44,388 nt of DNA. It comes from Candidatus Omnitrophota bacterium. GTDB lineage: Bacteria; Ratteibacteria; UBA8468; B48-G9; DTJG01. Both the position numbers and the translations under genes were made by a program. The notes beneath the pieces were generated by a model, which saw only the letters and a list, made by a program, of their open reading frames with translations, was not told the DNA's origin and did no database searches. Location of the stretch: the NCBI GenBank assembly GCA_023818375.1, contig JAMWCC010000126.1, positions 2,684 through 47,071 of the forward strand. The letters run 5' to 3'. Numbering within the stretch: position 1 is the stretch's first letter; every line of letters starts with the position of its first letter. Positions 38,641-44,388 of the stretch are shown here, in pieces.

Positions 38641-41600
38641 TTATTCCGGTGAGTATCGATACCAACCACCGGCTTTTTTGATTTCTTGTTCAACTTCATT
38701 TAAATTAATGACATCTCTATGAGTAAGATTGTCTGTGTATATATGCACATCATAAGGATAAAATCTATCAACAAATTTACCATTACTTACTTCAATATTC
38801 CTGGCCTCTGATATGACTTTTAACTTTTTTATTTGACTTGATACAAAGATTTCTGGAGTTACTGTTTCTCCAGAAGTATTTACAGCAATCAAATAAAATT
38901 TTCCATTTAAATCTTTTCCAGAAAAATCAATTCTTTCGTCATTGATGACGACCGTTTTTGTTACATCCTTTCCGTGCAATATAACCTCACTCAGAGATTT
39001 TTTCTCTTTTATCAAATACGGCATGCCCACTCTTAGATCCGGTATGTTAACTGCTCCCCAGTGACCTGGATCTTTTTTCCCGAAAACATAGTAATGAAAT
39101 CCCTTTGCTCCATTTACTATAGCAAGATAATTCATACATCTTTCTTCAATAAAACTTGGTCCTCTACAGTCTCGGGTAGAATATGGAGGTTGAGTGGCAT
39201 AGATCTTGCCATAATCAAAAACTTGGGGTGTTACGCCTATAAATTTTTTCCCTCTTCCTTTTTCCTTTATTTCTTTCATAAAGTTACTTATGTAGGACAT
39301 CGGCCGCGATAGTTTTCCAGTAGTTAATGGATTAACATAAGGATCTGGAATAAACATTTCAGCACATTCTATATATGTACTGATGCCATTAACTGAATTA
39401 TTTGTTAACTGCACTGGATGATATGGGTCTAACTTTTTCAGTAATTGGTAAGTTTCTTTTAATATCCTGGGGCTTATATTTCTATCCTCGGGTTCGTCAG
39501 CAAGATAATAATACAAAAGAGCCGGATGGTTTTTTATAGAATTTATTCTACTGGTTATTACCTCGATTGCTTCATCGGATAAGACATCCTTTCCTGTCAA
39601 GTATTTCTCTCGTTCTTTCCCACTAAAGAACGCTACCACCCCATACTGGTTGATTTTATATAACTCATCAAGGAATTCTCTGGCTTTGTTACCAACTACT
39701 AACGCAATGCCGTCTGCTCCTGTTTTTGCTATTTCCTCAAAAGGTGATCCGCCCCACCATATTATTGGCAATATTGGTTTACCATTTAATACAAGATTAA
39801 GGTTTTCGTCTATGTATACTTCACTACCTTTTGCGGGTGGCATTTTATATAATGGAATAGAAGTCTCATAAAGCGTTTTACCTTTCTCTGTTATTCTTCC
39901 TATAATTTTGTATTCTCCATCCTTCAACTCGGGTATTTCCATCATCACTTTTTGCTCTTTCTTGGCATCAATTGAGATTTTTTTTATTACATTTCCAGTG
40001 CCATCCGTAATTAGAACTTCTTGTTTTAGTGTTTTAATGTCAGCTTCTTTTAATCCAGATTTTATGTCGAGTACTATTGTCTTTATCTTCTGCGTTGAAT
40101 AAATCGAATTTCTGTATAAGGGCTTCAATAGTTCTAATGAAATTTCTGCATAATCAACTTTAATATGGAAACTACCAGTGTAAATATTTCTACTTTTTTC
40201 ATTTATTTCAGCACTAAGTTTATATTCTTTTGCTTCAGGAATTGTTACCGTTAGTTCAATGGCTTTTTCTTTTTTTGGTAAAAGATGGAGATTCACTTTT
40301 TCTAAGACCCCAAGTTTTCTATTGTATATCTCCAGGGTAATTTCTCTTTCACTGTCTGTTAAATTTTTTATGTTTCTTTTCATACTCACATTTACCCATC
40401 CATCATTCCTCTTTTCCACCTCTTTTACTGTAAGACCAGCAAACTCTATTTGATACAGCGATAGATCAACATTTTCAAGTTTACAGGGTTTAAACAAATC
40501 AGGAATATGAAATTGGCCTTTCTCAGCAATCGAACTTTCCTCTTTTCTATCCGCGAGAACCCTCCTGTTTCTTGCAAAGTTCAGGGATACATCCTTTTTT
40601 ATTCTTTCGTGAATTAAGGACGAATAAGGAATAACCACCTCAAGAATCCATCTCTCTTTTTCTTTTGAACTTCCAGTATATAAACGAAATTCTTCTATCG
40701 GACGGCTTACGGTCCCACCCTCTGTCCTCAATTCAACCCCGTAATATCCTGATGAATTAATTACAAAATGATAGTAGTCGAACCTATCATTGTCCAAATC
40801 TATCATTATTTCTACGCTGTCATCATAATATACCTTCAATGTATTTTCCTTTACACTATCCTTAAGATTTTTCATTTCAGGTTCATCGCAAATAAATCCA
40901 AAATAGAGATTGTCATCGTCATAGTTAAAAATTACCTTTGTTTGAACAGGTGCAAGGATGGTAGTGCCTGTCATAAAGAAGTTAGTAAACAATCTTCCCT
41001 GTTCCCAGATTTCTTCATCTAATTTTCCATCAAGGGTAATTTTTTTTTCTTTCCAATTTTTCTTTTTGTATTCATTGAAAATTTCCTCTTCTGTCAATTC
41101 CCCTTTGTATATTTTGACTTCATCAATTGCTCCCATAAACCCATATCCGGAACCTCCAACATATGCACCCACTGTCAGGGGTAGGTTGCGAGTTGTAATT
41201 TCAAACTCGCCGTCACTTTCTGAAACCTTTTTACCATTCAAATACATAAATATCTTCTTGTTTCTGTCCCTTTTGACACAGACATGATTCCATTGGTCTA
41301 GCAAAACTCTGTCAATCGCCGGATTAGTCTTTATTTCCCAGAAATATTTTTCTACCTTACCTCTATATGCAGGACCAAGTCCGCTCCTGAATATTAACAT
41401 GTTCCAGAAATATGTTAATCTCCAACCAGGGCCTATATCTCCGGATGTGTTCAATATTTCAGCAAATTTGCGGAAATCCTTTTTTGAATCGGGTTTTATC
41501 CATACACTTATAGTAAACGGTCCATCCGAGAATTTTTGAAAAAAATCATCCTTCGCTGTCTGAGGGAATACTATACAATCAGACTCTTTCTCTTTTCCAC

Positions 41601-41793
41601 CAAAATATATTCCTTTACCAATTATTCCTTCTACCTGTTCTACCTTACCTCTTATCTTACCCTCAATTCCATGAACACTATCTTTAATTACCTGATCTGA
41701 AATTTCATCGAAAGGTAGATAAAATATTAGCTCCGCTTTTGAAAACAAAAGACTTGCAAAGACAAAATATATCAACGTCGGAAACTTTTTCAT
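38641..41793 (-). CDS. Large secreted multidomain CAZyme-like protein: LamG + CBM9-like + putative glycoside hydrolase barrel
   Basis: Signal peptide. LamG (FTISVWIK, QWNHV, YLNG, GAIDEVKIY), CBM9-like (LDGKLDEEIW, DDSVEIMID, WILEVVIPY, NFAR), C-terminal 'HPALLYYYLADEP..LDPYHP'. Confidence 0.75.
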   Translation of the reverse strand: MKKFPTLIYFVFASLLFSKAELIFYLPFDEISDQVIKDSVHGIEGKIRGKVEQVEGIIGKGIYFGGKEKESDCIVFPQTAKDDFFQKFSDGPFTISVWIKPDSKKDFRKFAEILNTSGDIGPGWRLTYFWNMLIFRSGLGPAYRGKVEKYFWEIKTNPAIDRVLLDQWNHVCVKRDRNKKIFMYLNGKKVSESDGEFEITTRNLPLTVGAYVGGSGYGFMGAIDEVKIYKGELTEEEIFNEYKKKNWKEKKITLDGKLDEEIWEQGRLFTNFFMTGTTILAPVQTKVIFNYDDDNLYFGFICDEPEMKNLKDSVKENTLKVYYDDSVEIMIDLDNDRFDYYHFVINSSGYYGVELRTEGGTVSRPIEEFRLYTGSSKEKERWILEVVIPYSSLIHERIKKDVSLNFARNRRVLADRKEESSIAEKGQFHIPDLFKPCKLENVDLSLYQIEFAGLTVKEVEKRNDGWVNVSMKRNIKNLTDSEREITLEIYNRKLGVLEKVNLHLLPKKEKAIELTVTIPEAKEYKLSAEINEKSRNIYTGSFHIKVDYAEISLELLKPLYRNSIYSTQKIKTIVLDIKSGLKEADIKTLKQEVLITDGTGNVIKKISIDAKKEQKVMMEIPELKDGEYKIIGRITEKGKTLYETSIPLYKMPPAKGSEVYIDENLNLVLNGKPILPIIWWGGSPFEEIAKTGADGIALVVGNKAREFLDELYKINQYGVVAFFSGKEREKYLTGKDVLSDEAIEVITSRINSIKNHPALLYYYLADEPEDRNISPRILKETYQLLKKLDPYHPVQLTNNSVNGISTYIECAEMFIPDPYVNPLTTGKLSRPMSYISNFMKEIKEKGRGKKFIGVTPQVFDYGKIYATQPPYSTRDCRGPSFIEERCMNYLAIVNGAKGFHYYVFGKKDPGHWGAVNIPDLRVGMPYLIKEKKSLSEVILHGKDVTKTVVINDERIDFSGKDLNGKFYLIAVNTSGETVTPEIFVSSQIKKLKVISEARNIEVSNGKFVDRFYPYDVHIYTDNLTHRDVINLNEVEQEIKKAGGWYRYSPE

Positions 41794-41820: not shown

Positions 41821-42609
41821 TCAGAAACCCTGTCTCAAAGGCAAAGAACTTCCTACACTATAAGGCGAACAGAATGCCTCAGGTGTTTTTGCTTCTACGT
41901 GGCAATCAACATATAAAACATTTACCAGGCCTACAGAAACAGTACCTGTGCCATACGTTTTTGTAGACAGCCCACCATGTCTGAATGCAATATAAGAGCC
42001 GGAGGGATGACCTGATGGATACGTATAATTGACAAGAACATTATCTATCCATGCATTATCAACGACCCAAACCGCAATGGTAGGATTTGTTACCCTTTGA
42101 ATCCTTCTTGTCGGATAAGTAGGGTCTACCGGATATGGTGGGGAGCCGGTATGCCGACCTACCAACCAGAGATTTATTGCATAATGAGTATAGGTAAAAT
42201 TTCTTCTTTCACTTGGACAAAATAGGTTCTTTCCTCTCGCCTCAGGGACGTCATAATTCGAGCGAGGAGCACCAATATATATTCCATAATTTGTGACTGA
42301 ATATCGTCCATATTTTCCAAGGAGTTCGAACCATGGTCTTGCGCTTACATTACCACTCCAGAAGGCTGGATAAGGACTACTGGCAGGCAAAAGCCATCCA
42401 TCATAATCCTGCGTATAAAACAGCAATGCAAAACCCACTTGCTTCAAATTATTCATACAAATGGATTGTCTTGCCCTCTCCCTTGCCTGCGAAATCACCG
42501 GAAGTAGCATCGCAGCAAGTATCGCTACAATCGCTATTACAACAAGAAGTTCAATTAGAGTGAACCCATGTGGGTTTTGAGAGCGGGCTTTTTGAAACTT
42601 AAGCAACAT
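41821..42609 (-). CDS. DUF1559-type prepilin N-terminal cleavage/methylation domain protein
   Basis: [29 protein letters not shown]...CMNNLKQ, Y..DYD, CPS, and a C-terminal RH...[10 protein letters not shown] variant of the H-X9-DG motif. SD AAGGAGGTG. Confidence 0.92.
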
Positions 42610-42700
42610 ATTGCACCTCCTTGAAAAAGTGGTTATTTATATAAACAGAACTCAGGATAGAATTTACTCTATCTCTGGTTCTGATAACATGGAGGAAACA

Positions 42701-43816
42701 ATGAATTATATTGGTGTAGATTTGCATAAGGACAGTATGACAATAGTTGGTTGCAGAGAAAATGGTGAAATTTTTGTTAAAGACAAAATTGCCTGTAAGT
42801 GTATAAATAAGATTGAAAAGTTTTTTCTTCAAGAGCAACTTCAACCTTGTAGTGTTGCAGTAGAAGCCATCGGTTTTTACCACTGGTTCTTTGACCTTCT
42901 TGAAGGTAAAGTAGAAAAATTTATTCTGGCAAATCCAATTGAGACAAGAAAATATTCCTGGGATCAACCTAAAACTGATTTTAAAGATGCTACCAAACTG
43001 GCGATTTTGCTGGCAGGAGGTGAATTTGAGAGAAATAAGAGCCTTTCTTGTTTTATACCTGATAAAGCTCTCCGTACATTTAGAGAACTTACCAGACAAA
43101 GACATAATCTTGTCTGCCATCATACCTGTCTTGTTAATAGTGCAAGAAGAATCTTTTTGAAAAATAATCTTTCTGGACCAAAAGTTCTCACTGCTACTAC
43201 CTTGGAAAATTTCCTTACTCAGTTTGGAGAAAAATTCCCTGAATACCACAGACAATTTCTTTACACAATAGCCGATAACCTCCTTTATAATGAAAGACAA
43301 ACAACAAAACTGGAAAGAAACATAGAACAATTCCTGCACCTCGAAAGATTTCAAAAACTTCATGAAATACTGACTTCTATCCCTGGAATCGGTGATATGG
43401 TAGCCGCTACTTTGATTAGTGAGATTGGTGATTTTTCCAGATTTCAAGCACCCGATAAACTTGCTTGTTATTGTGGGCTTGTCCCTATGCTGTGGCAATC
43501 TGCAAATACTGTCAGATATGGAAAAGTTACCAAAAAAGGACCAGTGTATGTCAGAAGAGTATTGGTTAATGCTGCCTGGGTCAGTATCAGACAAGATGAC
43601 AAACCCAGAAGAATATTTAACCGGATATCTAAAAGAGCAGGAAGAAAAAAAGCAATTGTAGCTATAGCAAGAAAACTTTTGGTTTGGTCTTGGTATCTGG
43701 TGGCTGAAGATGAAAAATGGAAAACAATTGCCACCAGCAATCTGACAATCAACTTGTCCGGGATGACCTTGATGAGGCTTTTGAAGAAAGCCGAAATCAG
43801 GGATAATTCCCTTTAG
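42701..43816 (+). CDS. IS110 family transposase/recombinase (DEDD RuvC-like + Tnp domain)
   Basis: YIGVDLHK, VAVEA, KTDFKDA (DEDD); SIPGIG, EIGDFSRF, YCGLVP..WQSA (catalytic Ser region), TKKG, AIVAIARKL. SD GGAGG at 42691-42695. Confidence 0.95.
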   Translation: MNYIGVDLHKDSMTIVGCRENGEIFVKDKIACKCINKIEKFFLQEQLQPCSVAVEAIGFYHWFFDLLEGKVEKFILANPIETRKYSWDQPKTDFKDATKLAILLAGGEFERNKSLSCFIPDKALRTFRELTRQRHNLVCHHTCLVNSARRIFLKNNLSGPKVLTATTLENFLTQFGEKFPEYHRQFLYTIADNLLYNERQTTKLERNIEQFLHLERFQKLHEILTSIPGIGDMVAATLISEIGDFSRFQAPDKLACYCGLVPMLWQSANTVRYGKVTKKGPVYVRRVLVNAAWVSIRQDDKPRRIFNRISKRAGRKKAIVAIARKLLVWSWYLVAEDEKWKTIATSNLTINLSGMTLMRLLKKAEIRDNSL

Positions 43817-43915
43817 GCTACTCCGGTAGCGTGAATAAGGCTCCCAGACTTGGGTATAAGGACTGGTGCAGAAATTAGTACGAATAGTTGAGTGCTGATG
43901 TCGGATTGTGTTTTC
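43817..43915 (+). ncRNA. Candidate IS110 bridge/seekRNA in the 3' non-coding end
   Basis: Three stem-loops: GCTAC-TCCG-GTAGC (C-UNCG-G), CCCA-GACT-TGGG, ATTAGTAC-N10-GTGCTGAT. G-U pairs favour the + strand. Confidence 0.5.
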
Positions 43916-44117
43916 ATAAATTGAGAAAAATTTTGATAAGGAGGTGCTTGGAGTAATATCATCTCTCAAAGTTCCATAGTTGTATCGTCTTCTCATTTTT
44001 TCTTACATCCTTTTCCTGTCCCTCTTTTGGGTTGATCCTGAGAAGATTAGGATTGCTACAATTCCTTTTGCAAATAAGCCCGCAAGTTTCCTCTCTGGCC
44101 TCGTAGTTTTCAAAAAT

Positions 44118-44146
44118 ATTACACAATGAAAAGTGCGGATTGTCAA
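44118..44146 (-). promoter_or_regulatory. Putative sigma70 promoter facing the IS and the DUF1559 operon
   Basis: Minus strand TTGACA (44146-44141), 17-bp spacer, TGTAAT (44123-44118). Confidence 0.45.
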
Positions 44147-44264
44147 TACTTTATTATTTACACATCCAGGAGGATAGGTATACTCCAATATTATATTTAG
44201 GTTTTCTCAGATGTTTTTCTATGGTAAAATCTCCACGAAATAAGTCGGAAGAAAGGGAAAAAGA

Positions 44265-44388
44265 ATGGATAGGAAATACAGAGTGGGCATATGTAAAATA
44301 GACATAACCCCTCCTGTAGGCTATCTATTATGGGGACATCTGAACAGAAATGAGCCCTCAAAAAAAATTCATGACCCACTATTTCTGA
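44265..44388 (+). CDS. Neutral/alkaline ceramidase-like protein N-terminus (3' truncated by window edge; absent from the ORF track)
   Basis: Manual translation MDRKYRVGICKIDITPPVGYLLWGHLNRNEPSKKIHDPLFL matches G....DITP..G..L.G...R......HDPL. Purine-rich RBS upstream. Confidence 0.7.
   Translation, partial: MDRKYRVGICKIDITPPVGYLLWGHLNRNEPSKKIHDPLFL

Follow-up and report, generated by a model that had tools for sequence, protein, structure and literature searches.

Why should an insertion sequence in AT-rich DNA carry, from end to end, an antisense reading frame without a single stop codon? The question is raised by a stretch of 44,388 nucleotides (nt) from a Candidatus Omnitrophota bacterium (assembly GCA_023818375.1, contig JAMWCC010000126.1, positions 2,684 to 47,071 of the forward strand), referred to below as the window, in which an element assigned to the IS110 family interrupts a DUF1559 prepilin-like gene, with its transposase on the plus strand, antisense to the gene. 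An initial annotation had proposed that the element is selected for antisense read-through. The answer that we favour is close to this, namely that the element may be built for being crossed by host ribosomes.

Extent and Odds of the Antisense Frame

The argument begins with three features, which are as follows.

42561..43980, plus strand: insertion sequence, IS1111-type (IS110 family), 1420 bp, delimited by comparison of the flanks with relatives and by a second genomic copy
42701..43816, plus strand: transposase gene, 371 amino acids (ATG at 42701, stop codon ending at 43816, GGAGGA at 42691-42696)
42599..43996, minus strand: stop-free, codon-aligned antisense frame, from open reading frame (ORF) coordinates and codon statistics

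The initial annotation had described a minus-strand ORF of 465 amino acids starting outside the element, and exactly these coordinates were recovered, with the ATG at 43996-43994 and the stop codon at 42601-42599. From the host's old start codon the frame runs through the right end of the element, the 3′ non-coding stretch, the entire transposase gene and the 5′ region, and its stop falls, as had also been claimed, on the start of the DUF1559 gene (ATG at 42609-42607). The ORF and the transposase have a common codon register (low-coordinate codon starts congruent to 2 mod 3). We recounted the 41 leucine and 17 serine codons of the transposase and, in agreement with the annotation, TTA, CTA and TCA were all zero.

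The host genome makes free use of these codons. In a reference set of 963 long ORFs from the same 2.07-Mb genome, TTA and CTA together account for 25% of leucine and TCA for 32% of serine, and given this usage the probability that the transposase alone avoids the three codons is 1.0e-8. Not one of the 963 ORFs is free of TTA, CTA and TCA, which disposes of the idea that the source lineage does without them in all genes. The content of guanine plus cytosine (GC) is 36.8% in the transposase and 36.9% in the genome. The longest codon-aligned antisense run in the host ORFs was 221 codons, and among overlapping shadow ORFs the runner-up had 263 codons versus 467 from stop to stop for this frame. 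The openness extends beyond the transposase gene to the non-coding ends of the element. It is real and far beyond chance.

Conservation of the Open Frame among Relatives

A profile of 24 homologous transposases retrieved 66 metagenome and 18 genome loci. The analysed rows were 62, that is, 61 loci with a near full-length match (given below by their L numbers) plus the window, and they include the near-duplicates L009/L010/L069, L007/L008, and L013/L057. The transposase gene is free of antisense stops in 46 of the 62. The comparison with homologues suggested at the outset was favourable, since the frame stays open in diverged AT-rich relatives despite synonymous divergence: 16 of the 27 rows below 50% GC have no antisense stop, down to 30% GC. 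Open low-GC rows include L071 (29.9%), L014 (31%), L013/L057 (33%), L012 (37%), L073/L074 (40-41%), and L006-L011 (41-48%), with open spans of 459-505 codons and longer ones in L073 and L074. Stops occur in 11 low-GC rows, namely L003, L004, L005, L017 (one stop), L018, L019, L021, L022, L024, L070 (one stop), and L085, which is distant. TTA, CTA, or TCA codons number 10-21 in sister elements at 45-47% GC. The chance of openness per lineage, calculated from the codon usage of flanking host ORFs (small samples), ranged from 5e-3 to 1.5e-11.

In a phylogeny of 52 transposases, relatives with the open state occur throughout the clade, and the closed state is found in two groups (L018/L019/L021/L022/L024 and L003/L004/L005) and as single recent stops. 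Considering that exactly the three stop-complementary codons are avoided, in coding and non-coding parts and in many AT-rich lineages, only selection for an uninterrupted antisense frame explains, in our view, the avoidance. A deletion variant of this locus was also seen in contigs of three other public runs from two studies. It skips exactly 411 bp (window 42911-43321), equal to 137 whole transposase codons, and both frames are open with the listed variants (26 further differences lie outside the listing); as one event with 21-23 variants it is too little to count as evidence.

Constraint on the Antisense Product

Part of the antisense frame lies over a conserved non-coding region.

43827..43904, plus strand: conserved core of the 3′ non-coding region, candidate guide RNA (seekRNA or bridge RNA), from an alignment of 15 relatives

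The register places the first base of every antisense codon opposite a third codon position in the transposase, so that a constrained antisense protein should slow synonymous change in the transposase. At matched proportions of nonsynonymous differences in the sense frame (pN), the proportions of synonymous differences (pS) were alike in open and closed relatives. The pN/pS values were 0.086/0.605 (L006-L007), 0.080/0.466 (L006-L011), 0.077/0.480 (L012-L014), and 0.121/0.466 (L020-L023) in open pairs and 0.079/0.567 (L019-L021), 0.077/0.432 (L019-L022), and 0.091/0.437 (L004-L005) in closed ones. At about 70% transposase identity, antisense identity was 0.42-0.45 between two open relatives versus 0.43-0.44 between an open and a closed one. 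Among 13 aligned antisense products there are 23 invariant columns, and the invariant stretches RHQHSTIR and PYSR sit over the RNA core. The codon-usage score of the antisense frame (0.036) is under those of all 963 host ORFs and in the middle of the range for ordinary antisense frames, and the transposase scores like a normal host gene. The product had no match in Pfam, PHROG, or NCBIfam, and its only two database protein matches are both without domains.

These comparisons indicate that openness alone is conserved and not the antisense protein; if the product is unconstrained, it must be translation itself that matters. For annotation there is a warning here, as the longest ORF at the locus is not a gene.

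Entry into and Exit from the Frame

The way in which host translation would reach and leave the frame involves three further features.

41821..42609, minus strand: DUF1559 prepilin-like gene, 262 amino acids (Pfam N_methyl and SBP_bac_10/DUF1559; TIGR02532)
42561..42620, minus strand: element-borne restart, with GGAGGTG at 42620-42614, ATG at 42609-42607, and a 16-residue leader plus the first base of the Thr codon
43981..43996, minus strand: remnant of the host start and leader, ATG AGA AGA CGA TAC A (MRRRY), fused in frame to the antisense frame, from reading of the sequence

The element runs from 42561 (TGAACCC...) to 43980 (...CCATAGT). Relatives are alike as far as TGAAnCC on the left and CATAGT on the right and diverge beyond, and the homology to the second genomic copy ends at about 43981. 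The initial annotation had placed the ends at two ATAAA motifs; from 42641 to 43916 there are arithmetically 1275 bp, but the true ends lie outside them and the length of 1420 bp is 3n+1, not 3n. Nor is this copy a frame-preserving insertion, as had been suggested, since an overlap of stop and restart is used instead.

The insertion point corresponds to the G-F|T codons of the DUF1559 gene, whose product matches TIGR02532, the prepilin N-terminal cleavage/methylation domain. The host DNA of the gene lies from 42560 downwards, starting with TLIELLVV, and the start codon and first 16 codons are element-derived; at the end of the restart segment come the left subterminal repeat and the TGAACCC extension of 7 bp (42561-42567). 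When the flanks were joined without the element, ATG AGA AGA CGA TAC A and CT CTA ATT GAA gave MRRRYTLIELL in frame. The CGATAC of the host remnant is 2 bases off the usual GGATTC of native leaders. No empty site for this locus was present in four DNA sequencing runs.

The same arrangement was found in the relatives. With seven loci aligned and both junctions in 18, the minus-strand order per locus was host leader, ACTATG... of the element, then GGAGG, ATG, and leader, and then TLIELLVV. The host leaders end in G-F (MERRNRRSGF, MKRSKGF, MERKNKKNGF, and MRRLRNMFGF), and others of MxKKGF type stand at the same junction; the element-borne leader has 15-23 residues and ends in H-G-F-T. Since this second leader is nearly identical among copies in different pilin genes, and in L008 and L057 precedes unrelated DNA, it belongs to the element. 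Histidine at position −2 occurs in none of the 34 native leaders of this genome, which are short (e.g., MKKGFT); the gene in the window alone has it. The GFTL(I/V)E motif is present in at least 35 genes of the genome, each of them a potential target.

All readable junctions follow G-F codons on one side and most precede TLIEL codons on the other, with the transposase always antisense. The exceptions are non-pilin DNA beyond the left end in L008, L016, L027, and L057 and a non-pilin leader before L071.

The frame is entered in frame from a host start and leader in the window copy, the second copy, L012-L015, L057, L070, L071, and L073. On leaving, the stop at 42601-42599 in the window is 5 nt past the element-borne ATG, which has GGAGGTG 4 nt upstream. 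This overlap is also found in L006, L007, L009, L011-L015, L057, L070, and L071, where the end of the stop lies 4-11 nt downstream of the A of the ATG. In all 11 other relatives examined, L073 (40% GC) and ten at 57-64% GC, the open frame instead contains GFTLIELL and runs on into the DUF1559 protein. L073 has no restart; its host leader, the element and the DUF1559 protein down to its natural end all lie in a single frame of 695 codons.

In L074 (90-2984) a pair of different tandem IS110-family transposase genes with 34% identity is crossed by a single antisense ORF of 921 amino acids. This ORF terminates in TAAATG, preceded by GGAGGG, and the frame after it reaches HSFT, where the contig stops. 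One of the two elements there seems to have used the HGF site rebuilt by the other as its target. In L020 (1575-1650, minus strand, upstream of the right end) the DNA before the element is a leader of element type, IVSQIQHGF, which suggests head-to-tail copies at one site.

Relatives without the Frame and Decayed Copies

The closed relatives L018, L019, and L024 (three of three scanned) have a promoter-like minus-strand site, TTGACA-N16/17-TAAACT, just inside the left end, and keep the ribosome-binding site, ATG, and leader. A site of this type is visible by eye in L022; L021 is cut off. The promoter scan gave no comparable left-end minus-strand site in the window, L013, or L009. Judging from these sites, an outward promoter seems to be in use in the sister clade L018/L019/L024. 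Closed L003 and L005 have no in-frame start before HGFT, and the contig of L004 ends inside the left end. Terminator-like sites, tried as a discriminator, were dropped: the window has none, open relatives have 1-2 on their minus strand, and relatives without the open frame have 1-3.

The long frame is also lost in the decayed copies L056 and L080. The latter (L080:2192-3700) is a remnant in an Omnitrophota genome, with the transposase cut to 85 amino acids and the right end gone; a tRNA-like sequence was seen upstream.

Interpretation and Alternatives

To account for this anatomy, for the conserved openness in the absence of amino acid constraint and for junctions that are in frame or overlapping, we propose that the element is built for crossing by host ribosomes, in a relay of translation that avoids polarity; from the sequences at hand we put the probability of this reading at roughly 0.65. 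The clade targets the G-F|T cleavage-site codons of prepilin-like (DUF1559) genes, always antisense to the gene, and a transcript that starts at the host promoter has 1.4 kb of element to cross. Ribosomes from the host's original start codon would translate the stop-free frame through the entire element and terminate on the element-borne ribosome site and ATG, where the short leader ending in H-G-F-T is rebuilt and the pilin-like gene would then be re-initiated. Untranslated RNA invites Rho-dependent polarity, and the host genome encodes both Rho and a prepilin peptidase; we infer that such polarity applies at this locus. Continuous translation would shield the transcript from it, the antisense polypeptide being a by-product, so that the pilin-like gene and a 1050-residue gene behind it would stay expressed and the element would benefit from a lower cost of insertion.

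The read-through claim of the initial annotation thus keeps its core, given the open frame in AT-rich relatives, the lack of amino acid constraint, the host start that feeds the frame, the overlap at the restart, and the in-frame relatives. Its element boundaries and 3n length were wrong, and translation itself is something that we infer.

Several points weigh against the proposal. The contrast between open and closed classes comes down to only two independent losses on the tree, and a stop-free frame is far less remarkable, given their composition, in the ten in-frame relatives that are GC-rich. At the entry, the host sequence resembling a Shine-Dalgarno site, AAGGA, is about 11 nt from the host ATG, further than usual. 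The host leader frame of L006-L011 is 19-30 codons long up to its stop, which lies near an ATG of the long frame, so that the latter needs entry by re-initiation; the host leader frame of L020 is 5 codons long, and in L020 and L023 the long frame falls 42-43 nt short of the restart. The long frame of L080 is broken and yet its pilin-like gene, of 245 amino acids with the element-borne leader MKKKFSKRFSKPHGFT, is intact, so that the gene can be kept without the relay. Making a by-product of 465 amino acids is, moreover, costly.

A more specific reading concerns the in-frame members, and we advance it tentatively, as possible and rather less than probable. In these the element would act as a prepilin leader extension of about 480 residues, the host prepilin peptidase would cut at the element-borne G|F to give a normal mature protein, and the window lineage would be a derived form with stop and restart. 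If true, the element would do at the protein level, with the help of a host peptidase, what introns and inteins do, and the logic of a giant leader could also explain the long-unexplained hed ("host expression dependent") frame of the insertion sequence IS900.

It is unlikely that the antisense frame encodes a functional Hed-like protein of the element, for example one regulating transposition, with the host start serving only for its expression. Such a protein would fit a conserved frame fed by host translation signals, as is proposed for hed (PMC8141618), and it would fit the 23 invariant columns. However, the transposase synonymous sites, which are antisense first positions, diverge as fast as in relatives lacking the frame, and RHQHSTIR and PYSR overlie the RNA core. 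The lack of a family match, the two database matches, and the non-gene codon usage also speak against it, as does a frame that is variously fused to the pilin, fused to a second element, or ended at a restart.

The possibility that antisense translation serves the element's own regulation, modulating interference with the transposase mRNA or the guide RNA, involves one more feature.

43933..43962, plus strand: outward promoter-like site near the right end, TTGATA-18-TATCAT, score 10/12

The frame crosses this site as well as the candidate guide-RNA region, and host-driven antisense transcription would have to meet transposase expression. We give this explanation a slightly smaller chance than a Hed-like protein, considering that it leaves three things unexplained: the end of the frame exactly at the rebuilt start, its in-frame run into the pilin, and its loss in the relatives with an outward promoter.

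Chance or composition, with a source lineage that avoids TTA, CTA, and TCA or an avoidance for reasons of sense translation, would suit the GC-rich relatives, which would seldom have these codons anyway, and is nevertheless very improbable in view of the host codon usage, the equal GC of transposase and genome, the 10-21 such codons in sister elements, and the open non-coding ends.

Insertion sequences are usually assumed to break or polarise genes, and here a whole clade appears to be transparent to ribosomes through codon choice over 1.4 kb. This is a rare case of selection on the openness of a reading frame without selection on its product.

Comparison with Known Systems

The closest precedent, by family and arrangement, is IS900 of Mycobacterium avium subsp. 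paratuberculosis. A host gene targeted by IS900 receives the element between its ribosome site and its start codon. The title of Doran et al. 1997 gives translation initiation signals as the target. Its hed ORF lies on the strand complementary to the transposase, spans the entire element without a ribosome site or start codon of its own, and is given as of unknown function in PMC8141618. The locus described here is likewise an IS110-family element with a complementary-strand ORF that spans it and borrows its start, the antisense ATG being 14-16 nt outside the right end. It differs in several respects. IS900 resides in GC-rich DNA, where long antisense frames come easily, whereas the frame is kept here at 30-48% GC; the insertion is not at initiation signals but past the start codon, at G-F|T within the codons of the leader peptide; the element rebuilds the start of the gene; and there is sequence evidence that only openness is selected. 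The proposed relay gives a testable function to the full-length antisense frames of IS110-family elements, known since hed and never explained.

Insertion sequences with outward promoters, and introns and inteins as self-removing elements, show other ways for mobile elements to leave an interrupted gene functional. Here the solution would be translational, a stop-free passage with a restart or, in relatives, a passage in frame ahead of a peptidase cleavage site. Piv of Moraxella, a pilin gene invertase, is a relative of the IS110 transposases and likewise a DEDD recombinase, and its sites of action are type IV pilin genes; it inverts a segment and is not a mobile insertion, and no read-through frame is known for it. 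Piv appears in a tree legend of PMC11187229, and a paper on pilin inversion is in the reference list of PMC11208160.

The IS1111 group (ISEc11, IS621, and relatives; PMC11187229, PMC11208160), whose members are guided by a seekRNA or bridge RNA, has a DEDD transposase with a conserved non-coding region downstream, and inserts into one target in one orientation with target duplication absent. Its subterminal inverted repeats, of about 11-13 bp, carry extensions of 7 bp on the left and 3 bp on the right (PMC11187229). The present element shares the transposase, the downstream region and the mode of insertion. The repeats with their extensions are clear in relatives such as L013, and in the window copy the right arm is degenerate. 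The available passages of both papers contain no occurrence of "antisense", "opposite strand", or "complementary strand" and describe no antisense frame. The literature searched contained no description of prepilin leader codons as the target of an IS110-family element, nor of a read-through design. The clade would be an RNA-guided recombinase lineage with a conserved protein-coding motif as its natural target, dozens of copies per genome, which is of interest for bridge-RNA engineering.

Transposase, RNA Core and Repeats

Assignment to the IS110 family, with its DEDD transposase, follows from both domains being present, an N-terminal DEDD/RuvC-like domain (Pfam PF01548, E 1.5e-11) and a C-terminal Transposase_20 domain (PF02371, E 8.4e-25). 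NCBIfam NF033542 (IS110 family RNA-guided transposase) scored 218.5 bits against a cut-off of 140. The non-coding stretches comprise 164 nt from the transposase stop codon to the right end and a 5′ region that is also long (140 nt).

The RNA core is nearly invariant in the 15 aligned relatives and has 19 predicted pairs, 5 of them with compensatory changes. It contains AGCGTGAA and ATAGTTGA, which match the two insertion junctions, and is probably the guide RNA, by analogy to IS1111 biology as described in PMC11187229. Rfam gave no significant family for the region, the sole match being a chance lncRNA (E 0.5). The outward promoter-like site scores 12/12 in L013 (4226-4255) and 10/12 in L009 (4250-4279), at or near the consensus TTGACA-N18-TATAAT; it would read into the left end and drive the transposase after circle formation.

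In L013 the subterminal repeats show CAAAACCACAT at both ends, followed by GGCTTCA or AGT. In the window copy only TTTGAGAG/CTCTCAAA pair cleanly, and the repeat search listed no terminal pair. The right repeat (43962-43980, CAAAGTTCCAT) is degenerate compared with both the left arm (42568-42583) and the second copy, so the window copy may be immobile despite its intact transposase gene. That second copy, at the start of contig C24 in the same genome (L002:1-95), is 88% identical; its antisense frame continues that of the preceding host leader, (GTG)-K-N-K-G-F, and just upstream there is a LacI-like C-terminus.

Neighbouring Genes

Behind the pilin-like gene there is one further gene.

38641..41793, minus strand: downstream gene, 1050 amino acids, with a weak TafC-family match far below cut-off

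Its expression would, judging from its position, also depend on transcription through the element. A possible minus-strand promoter, TTGACA-N17-TGTAAT, noticed by eye upstream of the host leader (about 44141-44113) was absent from the promoter scan and was not used. On the other side, a plus-strand frame starting with MDRKYRVGICKIDITPPVGY at 44265-44387 runs off the contig end. Considering this frame, the stretch 43997-44264 is divergent intergenic DNA and should hold the promoter of the interrupted pilin-like gene.

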